Sequence record: MW822007.1
Source: Escherichia phage BF15
Strand: one strand, 5' to 3'
Length of the DNA stretch: 64,000 bases
Under the pieces are notes generated by a model. It saw nothing but the letters and a program-made list of their open reading frames with translations. It was not told where the DNA came from and searched no databases. This document shows, piece by piece, positions 946 through 64,000 of this stretch (positions within the stretch are counted from its first letter, which is position 1; every line of letters begins with the position of its first letter). The translations under genes were made by a program, and so were the position numbers.

Positions 946-1416
946 TTAATCATGTTTCCACACCCCATCGATATTTGACCAAAGTCGCTGATTATCTGAT
1001 CCTCGCCACAGCTTTTTAGTCGGAAGATTTTTCTCATACTTCCCATCAATAATAACATCAACATATTTAAGCATTTCTAGTTGTTTAATATCTTCAAACT
1101 TATATCCTGTCCACAACCAAATGCTTTTATTGGGATAAAGATTTTTTACTGTTTGAACAATGCAATGAATCACGTCTCTGTTATCAGGATAAAGAGGGTC
1201 ACCTCCGGTTATAGTTAATCCTTCTATATAATCATTATTCAAACATTCAATCAATTGTTCTAGTGTTTCACCAGTGAATGGAATACCATTTCTAGCATTC
1301 CATGTTGATTTATTATAACACCCTTCGCATTTATGCAAACAACCTGTAACGAAAAGAACGGTCCTGCATCCAGGACCATTCACAAAGCAGCACGGGTATA
1401 TTCTGTCATAATTCAT
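946..1416 (-). CDS. nrdG: anaerobic ribonucleotide reductase activating protein (radical SAM)
   Basis: 156 aa; N-terminal Cys cluster CCFVNGPGC...C; 3-prime of nrdD as in T4. Confidence 0.85.
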   Translation of the reverse strand: MNYDRIYPCCFVNGPGCRTVLFVTGCLHKCEGCYNKSTWNARNGIPFTGETLEQLIECLNNDYIEGLTITGGDPLYPDNRDVIHCIVQTVKNLYPNKSIWLWTGYKFEDIKQLEMLKYVDVIIDGKYEKNLPTKKLWRGSDNQRLWSNIDGVWKHD

Positions 1417-2092
1417 TTATATATTTCCAATTATAGCCTTCAACACTTTTACGTTCGCCATTTAAACATTTTAAAATATTTCCTTTGCTAGAAATATTAA
1501 AATATTTTGCTGCGTCTGGTATATAATTAAATGTTTTTAAAAGAACACCATCTTTATATGCGCCAAATAAATTAAGAGTATATTTTTCTCGAAGACGTTG
1601 ATGTTTCCTTTTCATAACCTCAGGATTTGCATACGCCAACCTCAATGAATTTCTATGTTTTTCTTTTACTTCAGGTTTTTGCATTGCTAACTTAGTTAGC
1701 CTGGAAATTTTATTTCTAACTTCGTCAGTTTTCATTGCATTTGACAAATTTAATAAAGTTTTATTTCTAACTTCAGGTTTTTGCATTGCTAACTTAGTTA
1801 GTTCTCTATGTCTTTTTCTAAAATCGTCATCCTTCCATATATTTTTCGATAATTTTGACATAGAGCGGTGAAATAATTCCTTTTCACTGGAATACAATTT
1901 AAGAATTTCATCCAATTCATCTGTATTAAATCTATCGGTATTCGAGTTTATCATTCTATGAAAGGCATAACACATTTTACTATTACTTGTTTTAGCTAAA
2001 TAGTAATGAGCTAACGCGTGGTCATAATATGACAAATTAACAATATTCCATTTATCTGTTTTATATTCAGGAAATATAGATTTGGGAAGCAC
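1406..2092 (-). CDS. free-standing homing-endonuclease-like protein with four tandem ~17-aa basic repeats; catalytic motif not recognised
   Basis: repeats (L)TKLAMQKPEV(R/K)xK x4; inserted between nrdD and nrdG, overlaps nrdG start by 11 nt. Confidence 0.4.
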   Translation of the reverse strand: MLPKSIFPEYKTDKWNIVNLSYYDHALAHYYLAKTSNSKMCYAFHRMINSNTDRFNTDELDEILKLYSSEKELFHRSMSKLSKNIWKDDDFRKRHRELTKLAMQKPEVRNKTLLNLSNAMKTDEVRNKISRLTKLAMQKPEVKEKHRNSLRLAYANPEVMKRKHQRLREKYTLNLFGAYKDGVLLKTFNYIPDAAKYFNISSKGNILKCLNGERKSVEGYNWKYINEL

Positions 2093-2126: not shown

Positions 2127-2246
2127 TTATTATAATTTTTTTGTTATCAAATCAACATATGACAATAGTAAATCATTATTTTCTTCAAATATTAAAGATA
2201 ATTTATCATTAACAAAATCGCAAGGATAAAATCTATCATAATTCAT
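2127..2246 (-). pseudogene. diverged duplicate of the nrdG 5-prime end (39-codon ORF MNYDRFYPCDFVN...)
   Basis: ATG overlaps nrdD stop (ATGA); first 13 residues parallel NrdG MNYDRIYPCCFVN; the full nrdG lies 0.7 kb downstream. Confidence 0.5.
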
Positions 2247-4060
2247 TGGTGTTTAACCCTATGCATGATTTCTTTATTTTTACCGAGATTAAATCCGCGT
2301 TCGTTCGGATTTCCCAAATAACCACATGTTCTTCTTATGGTATTCATCTTTTTAGGATCAGTTTCTCCACAAATAGAACAAACAAATCCGTTTTCAGTAG
2401 GAGTCATTTCATGGGTACTTCCGCATGTAAAACATTTATCTACTGGCATATTAACACCAAAATAATCTAAATGTTGTGCAGCATAATCCCACACGGCCTC
2501 AAGACCTTTCAAGTTATTTTTCATATCAGGAAGTTCAACATAAGAAATGTGACCACCTGTCGCAATGAAATGATACGGCGCTTCACGAGAAATCTTTTCA
2601 AACGGAGTAATATTTTCTTCTACTGAAACATGGAAACTGTTAGTGTACCAACCTTTATCGGTAACATCTTTTACGCTTCCATATTTTTCCGTATCGAGTT
2701 TACAGAAGCGATAACAAAGGTTTTCAGCAGGAGTCGAATATAAACTAAAAGCAAATCCAGTTCTTTCAGTCCACTGTTTAAGATGAGCATTCATTTTAGT
2801 TAAAATTTCCTGTCCAATATCACGACCGACAAGAATATTCAATTCGTGAATACCAATGTATCCTAAAGACACTGAACTTCTACCGTTTTTAAATAACTCA
2901 ATTATGTCGTCATCAGGTTTAAGACGAACCCCGAATGCACCTTCTTGGTAAAGAATAGGAGCAACAGTCGCTTTAACTCCTTTTAAGGAACTAATTCTAC
3001 ACATCAAAGCTTCAAAACATAAATCCATTCGTTCATTAAATAGCTCAACAAATTTCTGTTCATTGAACTGTGTTCCAATATAAGAATCTAACGCGATGCG
3101 AGGAAGATTCAGTGTTACAACACCAAGATTATTACGTCCATCAAGAATTTCATTACCAGTCGAATCTTTCCATACGCTCAAGAAACTGCGGCAACCCATT
3201 GGAGAAACAGGAACAGATGAACCAGTGATAGCTTTATTGTTCTTAGCCGAAATGATGTCAGGATACATCCTTTTGCTTGCACACTCTAGAGCAAGCTGCT
3301 TAATATCATAGTTCGGATCGTCTTTATAAAGATTAACACCCTCTTCAACGAACATAACAAGCTTAGGGAAAATAGGAGTTATTCCATCACGACCAAGACC
3401 TTTAATACGATTTTTCAGAATTGCTTTCTGAATCATTCGTTCAGTCCAGTCAGTTCCCGTACCAAATGTAATTGTTACAAAAGGTGTTTGCCCGTTTGAA
3501 CTAAAGAGAGTATTTACTTCATATTCATAAGCTTGGAATGCATCGTATACGTCTTTTTCTGTTTTAGATTGAGCATAATTCAACGCATCAGCGATTTGCC
3601 ATTTTTCTGCATCCTCAATATGTTTTGCATAGGTGCGTTTAACATAAGGAGAAAGTACTTTATCTACATTCGCAAAAGTCGTTCCGCCGTATTGGTGAGA
3701 AGCAACCTGTGCAGTAATTTGTGCCATAATTGCAGTAGCAACGCCAATTGATTTAGGAGTTTCAATCTGCGCATTACCGAGCTTAAATCCGTTCTCAAGC
3801 ATTCCTTTTAAATCTACTAAACAGCAATTAGTAAATGGAAGAGCAGGGGAATAATCAATATCATGGAAATGAATAATTCCGCTTTCATGCGCTTTCATAA
3901 TAAAAGACGGGACCATATTTTTGGCAATGTGTTTAGACACAATACCAGCCATAAGGTCCCGTTGAGTTGGAAAAACACGAGAATCTTTATTAGCATTCTC
4001 GTTTAAAAGGTCTTTATCAGTTTTATGAATCAATCCTTCAATTTCTTTTTCAATTGTCAT
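2243..4060 (-). CDS. nrdD: anaerobic ribonucleoside-triphosphate reductase, intron-less
   Basis: 605 aa continuous ORF; glycyl-radical enzyme; C-terminal Cys cluster CFTCGS...CSICG. Confidence 0.9.
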   Translation of the reverse strand: MTIEKEIEGLIHKTDKDLLNENANKDSRVFPTQRDLMAGIVSKHIAKNMVPSFIMKAHESGIIHFHDIDYSPALPFTNCCLVDLKGMLENGFKLGNAQIETPKSIGVATAIMAQITAQVASHQYGGTTFANVDKVLSPYVKRTYAKHIEDAEKWQIADALNYAQSKTEKDVYDAFQAYEYEVNTLFSSNGQTPFVTITFGTGTDWTERMIQKAILKNRIKGLGRDGITPIFPKLVMFVEEGVNLYKDDPNYDIKQLALECASKRMYPDIISAKNNKAITGSSVPVSPMGCRSFLSVWKDSTGNEILDGRNNLGVVTLNLPRIALDSYIGTQFNEQKFVELFNERMDLCFEALMCRISSLKGVKATVAPILYQEGAFGVRLKPDDDIIELFKNGRSSVSLGYIGIHELNILVGRDIGQEILTKMNAHLKQWTERTGFAFSLYSTPAENLCYRFCKLDTEKYGSVKDVTDKGWYTNSFHVSVEENITPFEKISREAPYHFIATGGHISYVELPDMKNNLKGLEAVWDYAAQHLDYFGVNMPVDKCFTCGSTHEMTPTENGFVCSICGETDPKKMNTIRRTCGYLGNPNERGFNLGKNKEIMHRVKHQ

Positions 4061-19056: not shown

Positions 19057-19274
19057 GTCACCTTTAAGCAGTATTCTTCTACATGCTGTTTACGACCTTT
19101 CTTATCAATAAAGGTATATTCAACGAATGTTCCAATGTAGTCTTTATCGACATCATGTGGACTATTAATTGGACATTTAGTACGGCAAATGCGTTCCCAT
19201 TGACGAATAATTACTGCCTTATTCTTTGGGTCATACGGATGTGGATAATGTATATTCATAATAATGGTTCCCAA
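19047..19274 (-). CDS. tk.3: hypothetical protein
   Basis: 75 aa. Confidence 0.4.
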   Translation of the reverse strand: MGTIIMNIHYPHPYDPKNKAVIIRQWERICRTKCPINSPHDVDKDYIGTFVEYTFIDKKGRKQHVEEYCLKVTWL

Positions 19275-19723
19275 TCAACAATCACAATTTCTAATTTAGA
19301 GGAATATGTATCTAAAATCCCCTCAATAATATCCCAGTTCCCTTTACCTATGCCTGCACCAATCCTAGGCATATAGATTGTAGGTTTAATTAGTTTATTT
19401 TCACCAAACTCATTTAATTCTAACATACAATTCATTAAAGCGGAATACTCAAAATTTGGCCCTGGTTGAAATTGAGTATAAAGATTAAAGCAGCAAGCTT
19501 TATGAGTCCTAAAGTATTTTTCATAGACTGAATAAGAACCAAGTTTAGTTACATCACCCCATTCAGTCTGTAATTTATCAGCTTCCAAAATTTTAGGGAA
19601 AGCTTTGGTTAATTGACCTGCGACTCCAGCTTTCATCATGTGAAAACAATTACATCCATGCGCAATATTTTTACCTTCAGCGAAAAGGGCGACAATATCG
19701 CCCTTGATATATTTTACAATCAT
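19256..19723 (-). CDS. tk.4: macro-domain-like protein (putative ADP-ribose binding/hydrolase)
   Basis: GDIV...HGCNC...AGVAGQL and PRIGAGIGKGNW loops parallel macro-domain motifs. Confidence 0.5.
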   Translation of the reverse strand: MIVKYIKGDIVALFAEGKNIAHGCNCFHMMKAGVAGQLTKAFPKILEADKLQTEWGDVTKLGSYSVYEKYFRTHKACCFNLYTQFQPGPNFEYSALMNCMLELNEFGENKLIKPTIYMPRIGAGIGKGNWDIIEGILDTYSSKLEIVIVDWEPLL

Positions 19724-21133: not shown

Positions 21134-21412
21134 TTATTCTTTAAATCTAATCAATTTATTCATAGACTTTGAAACTTCTGCACGAACCTCATGTAGATTT
21201 TTGAGCTGTTCAAGACGCTGCGTATAGTAAGCAATTTCATCTTCTTCGAGACAGTCCTGTGAATCTTCTTTAAGATAACGTGCATAGTCCTGAAAAGCGT
21301 TACGAACTACTTCCTGGAAGTCATCAAGACTTTGAATTTTCTTAGGAGCAGCAGATACACGACGAGGGGCAGTATAATACTCATAACCAAACCCTGCGCT
21401 TAATTGAGCCAT
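21134..21412 (-). CDS. vs.3: hypothetical protein
   Basis: start at ATG with GAGGAA SD ([13 protein letters not shown]). Confidence 0.45.
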
Positions 21413-21678
21413 TAGTATTTTTCCTCTGGTTGGAACACTGCACGACAAGCCCACATACTGGCTTCTTTGAGTTTCGTTTTAGCAATAGTTAACTGATCGA
21501 GGCTTTCGGCGTAATTCTTCGCGAGTTCATCATCTTCACAGCTATCAAATGCTTCCCAAAATTCATCGTATAAAGCATCAAAGATAAGTCCTAAACGAAC
21601 TTCAGCGTCTTTAATAGCATTTACTTTACCGATTTTTTCGTCGGTATGTGGCTTATAACCTTTAATATCTTCAATCAT
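21412..21678 (-). CDS. vs.4: small protein in the vs.4 slot; candidate Acb2-like cyclic-nucleotide sponge
   Basis: 88 aa from ATG with GAGGAAG SD; assignment by synteny with T4 vs.4. Confidence 0.4.
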
Positions 21679-21892
21679 ATTTGACTTCCTCACCAGTACA
21701 TAAATCGTATTCAACTAAACGAATAGGTTCATGAATGCCATATCCCTGAACAGAAATTTCTGTAGTAGGATAAATTCCATTAATATCACCCATGTTCCAT
21801 GCTTCGTTAAATTGCTGTTCGCCTGAATTACTAAACCATTCGGCGAAAGCATTTAGCACATCTTCAGAACCTTCAATAATTATCTTTGCCAT
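21671..21892 (-). CDS. vs.5: hypothetical protein
   Basis: 73 aa. Confidence 0.4.
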   Translation of the reverse strand: MAKIIIEGSEDVLNAFAEWFSNSGEQQFNEAWNMGDINGIYPTTEISVQGYGIHEPIRLVEYDLCTGEEVKYD

Positions 21893-22254
21893 TACAAACT
21901 CTCGGTAAAGGTACGAGCGATAACGTCGCGCTGCTGTTCCGGAGTCAGAGAGTTAAAGCGAACTGCATAACCGGATACACGGATGGTCAGCTGCGGATAT
22001 TTTTCCGGATGCTTAACTGCATCTTCCAGAGTTTCACGACGCAGCACGTTTACGTTCAGGTGTTGACCACCTTCAATTTTAACTGTAGGCTGTTGCTCAA
22101 TTTCAATTTCACGGGCATGCAAACCGTAGAAAATTTCTGGGTCTACAAAAGAGTCCTCTTTAAAGGTTTTAGAGACAATAATTCGTGCTTGAATACCATC
22201 TTCAAAATAAATAGTACCTTTATGTGTGCCTTCAAGAATTTGATATGCTTTCAT
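21892..22254 (-). CDS. vs.6: autonomous glycyl radical cofactor (GrcA/YfiD-like)
   Basis: C-terminal ~60 aa carry the glycyl-radical signature [25 protein letters not shown]. Confidence 0.8.
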
Positions 22255-22261
22255 ATAAACC

Positions 22262-22642
22262 TCAATTAGAAAATAAATTTATCCAAGATTGTTCTTTAAT
22301 TAAAAATGGCTCAGAATCATATGCCATTAAACTCTGTGTGATTAGTCCTTTAAAAGGCCCATCAATAAATTCCATGGTAAAATATGGAATTTTATTCATT
22401 AGCCGTGCATTAGGAGCAGTACATAAAACTCTGCATCCTTTGAATACACCTTTTTGTAATTTGTATTGCTTGGGATAAAATTCGCTCAAAATGTTGTTAT
22501 TTGCCAAAATTTCAAAATGATTTACCAATTTATTTTTAATAGTTTTTGGCGAAAAATAGAGATATTCGAAAAGCTGAGTGTCTGTCATCATTGCATTCCG
22601 ATTACGAAAAACTGTGGACGAGTAATACCACCAATACAACAT
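22262..22642 (-). CDS. vs.7: hypothetical protein
   Basis: 126 aa; start overlaps the upstream ORF by 55 nt. Confidence 0.4.
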
Positions 22643-29591: not shown

Positions 29592-29668
<77 letters not shown>

Positions 29669-29671
29669 TAA

Positions 29672-30337
29672 TTAAAATTTCATTTTTCGACCTTTAAACC
29701 ATCCTTCTGGAATTGGATCAGTTTTCTTAATACGTTTAGAAACTTTTTCATCTAATGAATGAATCCACATCATACCAAATTGGGAATTCTTTTCACCTTG
29801 TTGGTGTTTATTTCTGGCGTGAGATTCTTTCATTTTATTAATAGTTTCAGGAGTATGAGTCTTACCCAAGAAAGATTTAGTATTTAAAAATTTCTCTCTA
29901 TACTTAGGATTATCCCAAAGCTGTTTAAACCTTTCTGAACCCATTTTACGATATTTTTCTTTAAGGTCTGGGTCGTTCTCAAATCTGGTTTTAAAAGCGG
30001 CAGCTCCTTTTAAGGAAGCTTCTTTCTTTTTATCCAAATATTCTTTAGTGTTTAAATGGTCCCAACCACCTTCACCACCTAATTTCAAATTATAAACATC
30101 AGGGCGCTTTAAAAACTCTTCAGTCACAATATTCTTTTCTGACTCAAACATAGAGGTTTTATCGTCAAAGAACTCTAATATTTCTTTAGAAAAATTTTCT
30201 ATACCATACTTATCTTGGGCTCTTTTTAATAATTTACCAGAACCCATATATCCATCATCTAAATTTTCGGTAGAATGAGCGCCTATATAGATTTTATTAT
30301 TAATTTTATTTGTTATTTTATAAATGTAATGGAACAT
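29672..30337 (-). CDS. segB: GIY-YIG homing endonuclease (SegB-like) inside the tRNA cluster
   Basis: YIYKITNKINNKIYIGAHS GIY-YIG motif; GGEGG; same position as T4 segB. Confidence 0.75.
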   Translation of the reverse strand: MFHYIYKITNKINNKIYIGAHSTENLDDGYMGSGKLLKRAQDKYGIENFSKEILEFFDDKTSMFESEKNIVTEEFLKRPDVYNLKLGGEGGWDHLNTKEYLDKKKEASLKGAAAFKTRFENDPDLKEKYRKMGSERFKQLWDNPKYREKFLNTKSFLGKTHTPETINKMKESHARNKHQQGEKNSQFGMMWIHSLDEKVSKRIKKTDPIPEGWFKGRKMKF

Positions 30338-30378
30338 AAATATCTCCTATTTCTAAGAGTATTTATGTTCTCAAAATA

Positions 30379-30450
30379 TGGCCCTGGGTGGAATTGAACC
30401 ACCATCTGGCGATTATGAGTCGCTTGCTTGAACCTTCCAGCTACAGGGCC
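30379..30450 (-). tRNA. trnI: tRNA-Ile (anticodon CAT, lysidine-type)
   Basis: acceptor GGCCCTG/CAGGGCC; anticodon loop CTCATAA; T-arm GGTGGTTCAATTCCACC. Confidence 0.7.
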
Positions 30451-30456
30451 TTGATA

Positions 30457-30529
30457 TGCTGATTGACGGAATCGAACCGCCGACGTCCTCATTACAAGTG
30501 AGTTGCTCTACCTACTGAGCTAAATCAGC
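30457..30529 (-). tRNA. trnT: tRNA-Thr (anticodon TGT)
   Basis: GCTGATTTAGCTCAGTAGG...; anticodon loop CTTGTAA; GGTTCGATTCC. Confidence 0.8.
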
Positions 30530-30536
30530 GAAATTA

Positions 30537-30623
30537 CGGAGGCGATAGGATTTGAACCTATGAGTCGCCGGAGCGACTGCCGGTTTTCAAGACCGGTGCA
30601 TTAAACCACTCTGCCACGCCTCC
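30537..30623 (-). tRNA. trnS: tRNA-Ser (anticodon TGA), long variable arm
   Basis: GGAGGCGTGGCAGAGTGG...; anticodon loop CTTGAAA; 87 nt. Confidence 0.8.
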
Positions 30624-30625
30624 AG

Positions 30626-30699
30626 TCTCCATACAAGGATTTGAACCTTGGACCTCCTGATCCCAAATCAGGCGCTCTACCAAACTGAGCTACACGGAG
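30626..30699 (-). tRNA. trnP: tRNA-Pro (anticodon TGG)
   Basis: TAGCTCAGTTTGGTAGAGC D-arm; anticodon loop TTTGGGA; GGTTCAAATCC. Confidence 0.8.
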
Positions 30700-30711
30700 T
30701 AAATTAAATTT

Positions 30712-30783
<72 letters not shown>

Positions 30784-30789
30784 AAACTT

Positions 30790-30876
30790 TGGTACGAGAA
30801 GTGGGACTCGAACCCACAAGGAAATCATTCCGCAGCATTTTAAGTGCTGTGCCTTTACCAATTTGACCATTCTCGC
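30790..30876 (-). tRNA. trnL: tRNA-Leu (anticodon TAA), CCA encoded
   Basis: GCGAGAATGGTCAAATTGGTAAAGG...; anticodon loop CTTAAAA; GGTTCGAGTCC; 87 nt. Confidence 0.8.
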
Positions 30877-30877
30877 G

Positions 30878-30950
30878 CTGGGAATAAAGGACTCGAACCT
30901 TTGCATCCTGGAATCAAAATCCAGTGCCTTACCAACTTGGCTAATTCCCA
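30878..30950 (-). tRNA. trnQ: tRNA-Gln (anticodon TTG)
   Basis: TGGGAATTAGCCAAGTTGG...; anticodon loop TTTTGAT; 1-nt spacer to tRNA-Leu (dimeric precursor). Confidence 0.8.
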
Positions 30951-48732: not shown

Positions 48733-50279
48733 GTAACAATACATATCAGCACGTATCAAATGAATCAAAATATGTTAAATTCGATCCTACTGGATCGAAT
48801 TTTCCTGACACTGTCACGACAGTGCAGTCTGCATTATCAAAAATAAGTAATATCGGCGTAAATGGTATTCCTGATGCAACTATGGAAGTTAAAGGAATAG
48901 CAATGATTGCGTCAGAGCAAGAGGTTTTAGATGGAACTAATAATTCTAAAATCGTTACACCAGCTACATTAGCAACAAGATTATTGTATCCAAATGCTAC
49001 TGAAACTAAGTATGGTTTAACGCGCTATTCAACAAATGAAGAAACATTAGAAGGCTCAGATAATAATTCATCAATAACGCCGCAAAAACTGAAATACCAT
49101 ACTGACGATGTGTTCCAAAATAGATATTCGTCTGAGTCATCAAACGGGGTTATTAAAATATCATCTACACCTGCAGCTTTAGCTGGAGTTGATGATACTA
49201 CGGCAATGACTCCATTAAAAACACAAAAACTTGCAATAAAATTAATTTCACAAATAGCTCCTTCCGAAGATACTGCATCAGAATCTGTGAGAGGTGTAGT
49301 TCAATTATCTACTGTTGCGCAAACTCGTCAAGGAACTCTCCGCGAAGGATATGCAATTTCTCCGTATACCTTTATGAATTCTGTTGCAACACAAGAATAT
49401 AAGGGTGTTATACGTTTAGGAACACAATCGGAAATTAACAGTAATTTAGGAGATGTTGCAGTAACGGGTGAAACACTAAATGGTCGAGGAGCTACTGGTT
49501 CTATGCGTGGAGTAGTTAAATTAACGACGCAAGCCGGTATTGCCCCTGAAGGTGATAGCTCTGGTGCATTAGCATGGAACGCAGATGTAATTAATACTCG
49601 TGGTGGACAAACTATTAATGGTTCTTTAAATTTAGACCATCTTACAGCAAACGGAATTTGGTCGCGCGGCGGAATGTGGAAAAATGGCGATCAACCTGTT
49701 GCCACTGAAAGATATGCGTCCGAAAGAGTTCCAGTTGGAACTATTATGATGTTTGCAGGTGATTCAGCACCTCCGGGTTGGATTATGTGCCACGGCGGAA
49801 CCGTGTCAGGAGACCAATATCCTGATTATAGAAACACGGTTGGAGCAAGATTTGGTGGTGATTGGAATAATCCAGGGATTCCTGATATGAGAGGTCTTTT
49901 TGTTAGAGGAGCTGGCACGGGCGGTCATATTTTAAATCAACGTGGACAAGATGGTTATGGGAAGGATAGACTTGGCGTAGGATGTGACGGAATGCATGTT
50001 GGTGGTGTTCAGGCACAACAAATGTCATACCATAAACACGCTGGTGGTTGGGGAGAATACCAAAGACATGAAGCTCCATTTGGCGCGTCCGTTTATCAAG
50101 GATATCTTGGAACTAGAAAATATTCCGACTGGGATAATGCTTCATACTTCACTAATGATGGATTTGAATTGGGTGGACCGAGAGATGCCCTTGGTACACT
50201 TAATCGTGAAGGATTAATTGGTTATGAAACTAGACCATGGAATATATCATTAAACTATATTATTAAAATTCATTACTAA
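48729..50279 (+). CDS. 12: short tail fibre gp12
   Basis: 516 aa; repetitive Thr/Gly-rich shaft. Confidence 0.88.
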
Positions 50280-63105: not shown

Positions 63106-64000
63106 ATGACTATCAAAACTAAAGCTGAACTTTTGAACAAATGGAAGCCATTACTGGAAGGTGAAGGTTTATCGGAAATTGCTAATAGCAAACAAGCGAT
63201 TATCGCTAAAATCTTTGAAAACCAGGAAAAAGATTTCCAGACAGCTCCAGAGTACAAAGACGAAAAAATTGCTCAGGCATTCGGTTCTTTCTTAACAGAA
63301 GCTGAAATCGGTGGTGACCACGGTTACAACGCTACTAACATCGCTGCTGGTCAGACTTCTGGCGCAGTAACTCAGATTGGCCCAGCTGTTATGGGTATGG
63401 TACGTCGTGCTATTCCTAACCTGATTGCTTTCGATATTTGCGGTGTTCAGCCGATGAACAGCCCAACTGGTCAGGTATTCGCACTGCGCGCAGTATATGG
63501 TAAAGACCCAATCGCTGCCGGCGCTAAAGAAGCATTCCACCCAATGTATGGTCCAGATGCAATGTTCTCTGGTCAGGGTGCTGCTAAGAAATTCCCAGCT
63601 CTGGCTGCTAGCACACAAACCGTTGTAGGTGATATCTATACTCACTTCTTCCAGGAAACTGGTACTGTGTATCTGCAGGCTTCTGCTGTAGTAACAATCG
63701 ATGCTGGTGCATCTGACGCAGCTAAATTAGATGCAGAAATTAAGAAACAAATGGAAGCTGGTGTACTGGTAGAAATCGCTGAAGGTATGGCTACTTCTAT
63801 CGCTGAACTCCAGGAAGGTTTCAACGGTTCTACCGATAACCCATGGAATGAAATGGGCTTCCGTATCGATAAACAAGTTATCGAAGCTAAATCTCGTCAG
63901 CTGAAAGCTGCTTACTCTATCGAATTAGCACAAGACCTCCGCGCTGTTCACGGTATGGATGCTGATGCTGAACTGTCTGGTATTCTGGCTACCGAAATCA
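63106..64000 (+). CDS. 23: major capsid protein gp23, N-terminal ~298 codons (runs off window end)
   Basis: MTIKTKAELLNKWKPLLEGEGL start; frame open to the window end. Confidence 0.92.
   Translation, partial: MTIKTKAELLNKWKPLLEGEGLSEIANSKQAIIAKIFENQEKDFQTAPEYKDEKIAQAFGSFLTEAEIGGDHGYNATNIAAGQTSGAVTQIGPAVMGMVRRAIPNLIAFDICGVQPMNSPTGQVFALRAVYGKDPIAAGAKEAFHPMYGPDAMFSGQGAAKKFPALAASTQTVVGDIYTHFFQETGTVYLQASAVVTIDAGASDAAKLDAEIKKQMEAGVLVEIAEGMATSIAELQEGFNGSTDNPWNEMGFRIDKQVIEAKSRQLKAAYSIELAQDLRAVHGMDADAELSGILATEI

Follow-up and report, generated by a model that had tools for sequence, protein, structure and literature searches.

One half of a small protein encoded by a T4-like phage is identical, residue for residue, to a protein of Escherichia coli, and the other half is different. 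This raises the questions of where each half came from, how recently and how often they were exchanged, and what the product would do in an infected cell. The gene lies in a stretch of 64,000 nucleotides from Escherichia phage BF15 (MW822007.1), referred to below as the window. A first-pass annotation, made from the DNA sequence alone, had proposed a GrcA-like glycyl-radical protein whose C-terminal module was derived from the host. We consider it highly probable that the gene is vs.6/Y06I, encoding a spare part for pyruvate formate-lyase (PFL), and that it combines a 5' half of phage lineage with a patch recently received from E. coli grcA.

The vs.6 Gene and Its Neighbourhood

The gene constitutes an uninterrupted reading frame on the minus strand, for a stand-alone protein of 120 amino acids (aa) and about 13 kDa, and it is preceded by a putative ribosome-binding site.

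21892..22254, minus strand: vs.6/Y06I orthologue encoding an autonomous glycyl-radical cofactor of 120 aa (phage GrcA), from ATG to TAA; identified from the ORF list, the sequence, BLAST, Pfam and NCBIfam
22260..22263, minus strand: GAGG, putative Shine-Dalgarno-like motif located 5 nt before the vs.6 start codon, read from the sequence

A 127-aa ORF on the opposite strand (21886..22269, plus) was dismissed as a shadow of vs.6. In a megablast search vs.6 was present in 756 of 50,697 phage records, many of which label it "autonomous glycyl radical cofactor GrcA" or "vs.6", and phage records with homologues number 1,591. Nucleotide identities to the window copy within the Tequatrovirus genus range from 97 to 99.7%, with values of 99.7% for Yersinia phage PST and 98.1% for T4 (strain 147). 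The T4 protein Y06I (vs.6; 'ORF 63.1' in X04567) is also 120 aa long, and its gene has the same neighbours and the same chimeric junction. That of T4 strain 147 differs from the window protein in a single residue, Q54P, such that the differences are at strain level only. Both the gene and its function are already known, vs.6/Y06I having been named, annotated and characterised.

Annotations of this gene in public records are not uniform. One record, OP168898.1 (ZCEC14), miscalls it 'HNH homing endonuclease', and in the T2 record AP018813.1 it falls under a feature named 'tail sheath monomer', both evident annotation errors, and several records of T5-like and Klebsiella phages name the homologue 'pyruvate formate-lyase' or '2-ketobutyrate formate-lyase'.

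Profile searches assigned the window protein to the glycyl-radical proteins (Pfam Gly_radical, PF01228, aa 60–101, E 2.5e-18) and to the GrcA family (NCBIfam TIGR04365, spare_glycyl; InterPro IPR011140), with 154.9 bits over aa 20–120, which falls below the curated equivalog cut-off of 170 bits. In a phmmer search against the PDB the top match was 6OWR, the NMR structure of E. coli GrcA (E 9.3e-42, aa 22–120), followed by PflB residues 697–759 (1cm5/1h16, E 5e-26). An AlphaFold2 model from the single sequence was uninformative (mean pLDDT 34.8, pTM 0.29).

All neighbours of vs.6 are tightly packed on the minus strand. Downstream are a 73-aa ORF, an Acb2/Tad1-type protein (vs.4), RegB, an SLT-domain protein (vs.1) and a macro-domain protein, while T4-type internal proteins and T4 lysozyme are encoded upstream. 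The order vs.8-vs.7-vs.6-vs.5-vs.4-vs.3-regB-vs.1 is conserved, in agreement with phage G8 and with the Vs.7 label in T4 strain 147, and the neighbourhood can be assigned to the early vs/regB region known from T4-like phages. E. coli grcA, in contrast, lies between ung and eamB, and vs.6 is part of an AT-rich phage early-region cluster. Promoter-like and terminator-like motifs around vs.6 did not exceed the numbers expected from shuffled sequences (12 against 10.2 and 2 against 2.0, respectively).

Two of the neighbours merit separate mention. The 100-aa protein encoded at 21412..21714 (minus), at the T4 vs.4 position two genes downstream of vs.6, matches the Pfam Acb2/Tad1 hairpin (E 1.4e-19) of a family of anti-CBASS/Thoeris cyclic-nucleotide sponges, and its gene stands in one tightly coupled series with vs.6. 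The 155-aa ORF at 19256..19723 (minus) carries a Macro domain (Pfam E 2.4e-5) and may correspond to tk.4, for which an A1pp phosphatase-domain match has been described (PMC1524935).

The Glycyl-Radical Half

The prediction that the C-terminal 60 or so residues, with their RVSGY signature, match enterobacterial GrcA was borne out in full. Residues 61–120 of the window protein are identical to residues 68–127 of E. coli GrcA at all 60 positions, and the identity ends at residue 60, which is I in the phage and V in the host. The signature was retained when the protein was aligned to GrcA and to PflB 697–759.

21967..21981, minus strand: RVSGY glycyl-radical signature, aa 92–96, from the translation and the alignment to GrcA and PflB 697–759
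21970..21972, minus strand: codon of Gly95, the expected radical carrier, aligned with GrcA Gly102 and PflB Gly734

The C-terminal domains of PflB and TdcE have the fold and the motif in common with the window protein, which lacks the catalytic barrel of these enzymes, and its sequence is of the GrcA type and not of the PflB type, which reads NREMLLDAMEN. Relative to E. coli GrcA the window protein is 7 aa shorter and its N-terminal half is 27% identical.

Some IMG/VR contigs filed as viral (our loci L163–L173) carry a GC-rich ORF (about 0.51) with a PflB-type C-terminus. These ORFs look like host pflB on prophage flanks or on misbinned bacterial contigs and not like phage GrcA.

A Host-Identical Patch of DNA

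At the nucleotide level the gene is divided into three parts.

22077..22254, minus strand: phage-type 5' half (head), gene nt 1–178, aa 1–60, AT-rich, defined by GC, GC3 and alignment
21905..22076, minus strand: host-identical patch, gene nt 179–350, aa 60/61–117, matching E. coli grcA DNA
21892..21904, minus strand: last 13 nt, codons 117–120 and stop, defined by codon comparison and sequence
21899..21903, minus strand: GAGAG within the last 13 nt, Shine-Dalgarno-like, a putative ribosome-binding site for vs.5

Over codons 61–116 (168 nt) the gene differs from E. coli grcA by one synonymous mismatch, GTG versus GTT at codon 70, corresponding to 99.4% identity, and the proposal of a host-derived module thereby holds at the level of DNA as well as protein. 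When 5,426 complete E. coli genomes were searched with blastn, gene nt 179–363 matched grcA in every genome, at 97.3%, a similarity far beyond chance. Composition changes with identity: the patch has a GC of 0.506 and a GC3 of 0.446, the head has 0.345 and 0.220, respectively, the mean GC of the window being 0.356, and the patch falls within the top 0.5% for GC among all 168-nt windows of the 64 kb. The leucine, arginine and proline codons of the patch are CTG, CGT/CGC and CCG, as in a highly expressed E. coli gene.

A few other 168-nt segments of the window are at least as GC-rich as the patch, at 63213..63999 (up to 0.536) and 49439..50143 (up to 0.512). The composition scan gave two further GC-rich islands, which are explained by a cluster of eight tRNA genes (Arg-tct, Met, Thr, Ser, Pro, Gly, Leu, Gln) at 29592..30950 (minus).

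At the 3' edge of the identity, codons 117–120 each carry one synonymous change relative to E. coli, and the vs.5 start codon (ATG, 21890..21892) overlaps the vs.6 stop codon as TAATG. Because the last 13 nt hold the GAGAG preceding the vs.5 start, this edge was plausibly set by selection for translational coupling with vs.5. The record of Klebsiella phage KLB8 labels the corresponding GAGG as a ribosome-binding site for the gene that follows.

As in the mosaics of the psbA type, host-level identity and composition inside the patch are combined with a flank of phage type in the same reading frame. The cyanophage genes psbA and psbD, as outlined by Sullivan et al. 2006 (PMC1484495), are auxiliary metabolic genes of T4-like phages with a patchwork of host and phage sequence and a shift in composition within the gene. 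Compared with this outline, vs.6 differs in showing 0–2 differences in 172 nt from living host alleles in two phage genera, in that its patch coincides with a structural domain boundary, and in that it is carried by a phage that degrades host DNA. No earlier description of the nucleotide-level mosaic in vs.6 was found in the literature searched, which covers T4 partially, so that its novelty is unproven.

The Phage-Type N-Terminal Half

The N-terminal half had been described as simply different from GrcA and, although this is correct, a weak relationship is still detectable. Over its residues 1–59, the window protein is 27% identical to E. coli GrcA in amino acids, 42% in nucleotides and 32% at third positions, and at the DNA level the head is essentially unrelated to that of grcA. 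A pairwise BLASTP alignment nevertheless gave 14 identities over 39 positions (36%) at aa 22–59, with an E value of 1e-5, and this match is colinear with the TIGR04365 alignment, which starts at aa 20; the first 21 aa are unalignable. Scanned alone against NCBIfam, the window head gave no match while the E. coli head scores 88 bits, and it is because of this divergence of the N-terminal half that the complete protein falls short of the equivalog threshold.

A head of the MKAYQILEG type occurs throughout the sampled T4-like genera; proteins of T5-like phages have only its opening, MKAYQ. The latter proteins are about 52% identical overall to the T4-like ones and yet begin with MKAYQ, which suggests that the phage-type N-terminal half has spread from phage to phage. 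In T5-like phages (our loci L091 and L092) and in the T4-like Aeromonas phage avDM5 (L090) the GrcA homologue adjoins tRNA-Met. We read the gene, from these sequence comparisons, as an old GrcA homologue of phage lineage whose catalytic half was overwritten by host DNA.

Donor and Direction of the Transfer

The last 186 nt of the gene were compared with grcA of 80 bacterial species and of E. coli. The closest were E. coli (96.8%) and another Escherichia (96.2%), and the best values outside Escherichia were about 90–92% (90.3%, then 89% and lower, with 92% given for Citrobacter amalonaticus); Salmonella sequences gave 82–85%. The host of E. coli type that had been inferred for the phage agrees with this ranking. 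Between bacteria, E. coli grcA is 92% identical to Citrobacter in the tail and 89% in the head, and 85% and 83%, respectively, to Salmonella. Since the head and tail of the E. coli gene diverge in parallel, the host copy seems to have been inherited vertically, which makes the phage the recipient.

Had the identity to host grcA been no higher than that of other phage orthologues, the proposal of a host-derived module would have been refuted, but the tails of other phage genera reach only 63–84% to E. coli grcA:

Jiaodavirus: 83–84%, and at best about 88.7% (87–89%) to any sampled bacterium
Slopekvirus and Pseudotevenvirus: 82–83%
Krischvirus: 74%
T5-like phages: 71–72%
jumbo Yersinia phage: 63%

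Patches matching the phages' own hosts were looked for in these genera. Against the 80 species, a set of loci without K. pneumoniae grcA, the tails of the Jiaodavirus (Klebsiella) phages never gave an exact run longer than 46 nt, and those of Slopekvirus and Pseudotevenvirus are 78–84% identical to the sampled bacteria. The tail protein is identical to GrcA in Slopekvirus 150040 and Pseudotevenvirus EC-F1, and differs in three residues in phage Miller.

The tails of these other lineages also vary at a short motif. The LLDAVEH variant, which is the GrcA type of Klebsiella, Enterobacter and Salmonella, occurs in Jiaodavirus (L003, 2001–2363; L084, 301–663) and in some Slopekvirus-like contigs from IMG/VR (L110, L111). 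The E. coli type LEDAVKH is found in Tequatrovirus, Mosigvirus, Slopekvirus 150040 and the Enterobacter Pseudotevenvirus EC-F1, and Citrobacter phage Miller carries LKDAVKH. The two variable residues of LLDAVEH and LEDAVKH co-vary as they do in bacteria, a hint that host exchange has taken place separately in other phage lineages, where nucleotide identities to the sampled bacteria are 83–89%.

Age and Possible Recurrence of the Exchange

Sixteen phage copies, 10 from Tequatrovirus and six from Mosigvirus, were compared. Copies from different genera diverge by 11.1% in the head, as against 1.7% in the patch, and at third positions by 22% and 5%, respectively, and the 300-nt flanks of the window gene are 67–74% identical to Mosigvirus genomes. 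Because the genera differ far more in the head than in the patch, the patch is, by this comparison, much younger than the Tequatrovirus/Mosigvirus split. In our reading it was taken up from the host chromosome by homologous exchange once the genera had separated, perhaps more than once. A host-like patch is common to essentially all genomes of both genera, with the 5' junction at the same position, and the patch consensus of both shows 0 of 168 differences from a living E. coli allele. Individual copies with no mismatch in 168 nt were found in T4 strain 147, G8, KNP5, two IMG/VR Tequatrovirus contigs and one Mosigvirus contig. More widely, of 751 matching phage records 374 reach an identity of at least 99% with chromosomal grcA across the 172 nt, and about one fifth, T2 and T4 among them, reach 100%. 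The 15 polymorphic sites in the patch among the 16 phages, mostly private singletons, are without exception synonymous, a pattern indicating strong purifying selection on the domain that they encode.

E. coli itself is polymorphic at gene nt 204, where A and T each occur in about half of the genomes (approximately 21 versus 17 among 40 evenly spaced genomes), and both host alleles are found among the phages. T2, T4, ECML-134 and others match the T allele at 172 of 172 positions, and PST (the nearest phage), Shfl2, EC121, W143 and others match the A allele at all 172; the window copy carries A together with one private synonymous change (G210).

Most simply, these patterns are accounted for either by repeated conversion from the host within a tract of homology or by one recent capture followed by spread from phage to phage. 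The former, in which recurrent homologous gene conversion from chromosomal grcA keeps the docking and radical domain in lockstep with the host, would explain the fixed junction in both genera if the conversion tract is confined to the shared homology. We propose it tentatively, at somewhat less than even probability, because the case for more than one capture depends on a single coincident polymorphic site, and a parallel mutation at nt 204, with a chance roughly estimated at about 3%, could produce the same coincidence. A single captured patch carried between the genera by phage-phage recombination would also be expected to leave the patch so little diverged. It is unlikely that the patch was captured just once, in the ancestor that Tequatrovirus and Mosigvirus share, and has stayed near-identical through slow synonymous change under codon or mRNA constraint with no later exchange. 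The one position of the 5' junction in both genera favours such an origin, and the preferred E. coli codons of grcA (CTG, CGT, CCG) can slow synonymous change, but the same region differs by 8–15% between E. coli and Citrobacter or Salmonella and is therefore not frozen. Moreover, a patch consensus without any difference from E. coli adjoins heads that differ by 22% at third positions, and the presence of both host alleles among the phages is not expected from one ancient event. That the patch is an artefact of chimeric assembly or host-read contamination, or a recently captured neutral passenger with no function, is so improbable that it can practically be set aside. Contamination would produce the same jump in GC and near-100% host identity, but the same in-frame junction recurs in some 640 independently sequenced phage genomes, and the T4 record X04567 (8,008 bp) already includes 'ORF 63.1 (AA 1-120)'. 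Against both the artefact and the passenger, the frame is continuous, patch polymorphisms are exclusively synonymous, and the last four codons show synonymous changes peculiar to the phage and bear the element resembling a vs.5 ribosome-binding site.

Function and Mechanism

The rescue of oxygen-damaged PFL, which had been suggested as the role of the protein, is supported by a report on its close relative. According to PMC8683613, citing Wagner 2001, no spare parts other than YfiD (GrcA) and T4 Y06I have been validated, and both are activated by the PFL-activating enzyme (PFL-AE) and restore O2-cleaved PFL. By analogy with Y06I, one residue apart (Q54P), the window protein would do the same. 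Residues 61–127 of YfiD are structured and adopt the fold of PFL 693–759, whereas residues 1–60 are disordered and aid the binding of cleaved PFL and the installation of the radical but are dispensable for catalysis (PMC8683613). Mapped on these YfiD domains, the host-identical patch (aa 61–117) falls exactly on the structured docking and radical domain, and the phage-type half corresponds to the recognition half.

For GrcA and Y06I the mechanism has been established in published work, and the window protein would follow it. In micro-oxic, fermenting cells O2 cuts host PflB at its radical glycine, Gly734. The vs.6 protein would then bind the cleaved PflB, with its C-terminal domain (beta-strand, Gly loop and helix) standing in for the lost residues 693–759, and host PflA (PFL-AE) would place the radical on Gly95 in RVSGY, such that the conversion of pyruvate to acetyl-CoA and formate could resume. 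T4-type phages shut off host gene expression, and for this reason a phage copy of the gene may be useful for PFL repair, keeping it available during infection in the gut. The phage would thus presumably benefit from supplying the repair protein while it propagates. In T4, vs.6 is among the genes not identified as essential (PMC1524935).

The window also encodes an anaerobic ribonucleotide reductase and its activase, to which the first-pass annotation had drawn attention as companions of the GrcA-like gene. Both are indeed present, but they lie 18–21 kb from vs.6 and are not adjacent to it.

2243..4060, minus strand: nrdD, 605 aa, with NRDD and Gly_radical domains
946..1416, minus strand: nrdG, 156 aa, radical SAM

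Between these two genes lies an ORF of 228 aa (1406..2092) with a weak match to an I-HmuI NUMOD-like profile (21.4 bits, under the cut-off of 27), which probably encodes a free-standing homing endonuclease and was inserted there.

Two other roles for the vs.6 product were considered. It might serve the reductase and not host PFL, assisting NrdD or acting as its spare glycyl-radical part after activation by NrdG. A role in nucleotide metabolism was proposed by Nolan et al. 2006 on the basis of the shared Gly_radical Pfam match (PMC1524935), to which the presence of both nrdD and nrdG in the window may be added. We regard this as very improbable, since the C-terminal 60 aa are those of GrcA and close to PflB 697–759, while the radical motif and tail of the window NrdD are different (IRRTCGYLGNPNERGF). 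The NrdD C-terminus reads IRRTCGYLGNPNERGFNLGK, with the motif RRTCGYLG..., and a radical motif or tail of this type was sought in the vs.6 protein and is absent. The distance between the loci speaks against a partnership as well, as does the report in PMC8683613 that Y06I acts with PFL-AE on cleaved PFL. There is an equally slim chance that the protein is a decoy, whose docking domain, identical to that of the host, is combined with a different N-terminus so as to block PFL or titrate PflA, redirecting or stopping fermentation. An N-terminal half only 27% identical to its host counterpart fits with this idea, and so does the fact that in YfiD this half governs the binding of cleaved PFL and the efficiency of radical formation, which implies that binding could differ in the phage protein. 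A blocker, however, would need neither a radical glycine nor a catalytic domain, and both are retained without any amino acid change in the 16 phages; furthermore, PMC8683613 reports that Y06I reconstitutes PFL activity. Repair of PFL is, for these reasons, the reading that we retain.

Implications for T4-Type Phages

As a gene, vs.6 adds nothing new, and its presence marks the window as that of a T-even phage of E. coli-like hosts. What it provides is a clean and quantifiable case of recent, and possibly repeated, homologous exchange from host to phage in a virulent phage, which is limited to one structural domain and in which both common host alleles are represented among the phages. It also shows that in spare-part proteins the catalytic half evolves as a module separable from the N-terminal half, which serves in recognition. 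The patch could also serve as a natural marker of recombination between T4-type phages and host DNA. Should recurrent conversion prove to be correct, then a strictly lytic phage that degrades the DNA of its host would continually resample host alleles of a single module, and vs.6 and grcA would exemplify the concerted evolution of a virus gene with a host gene, visible in hundreds of genomes.
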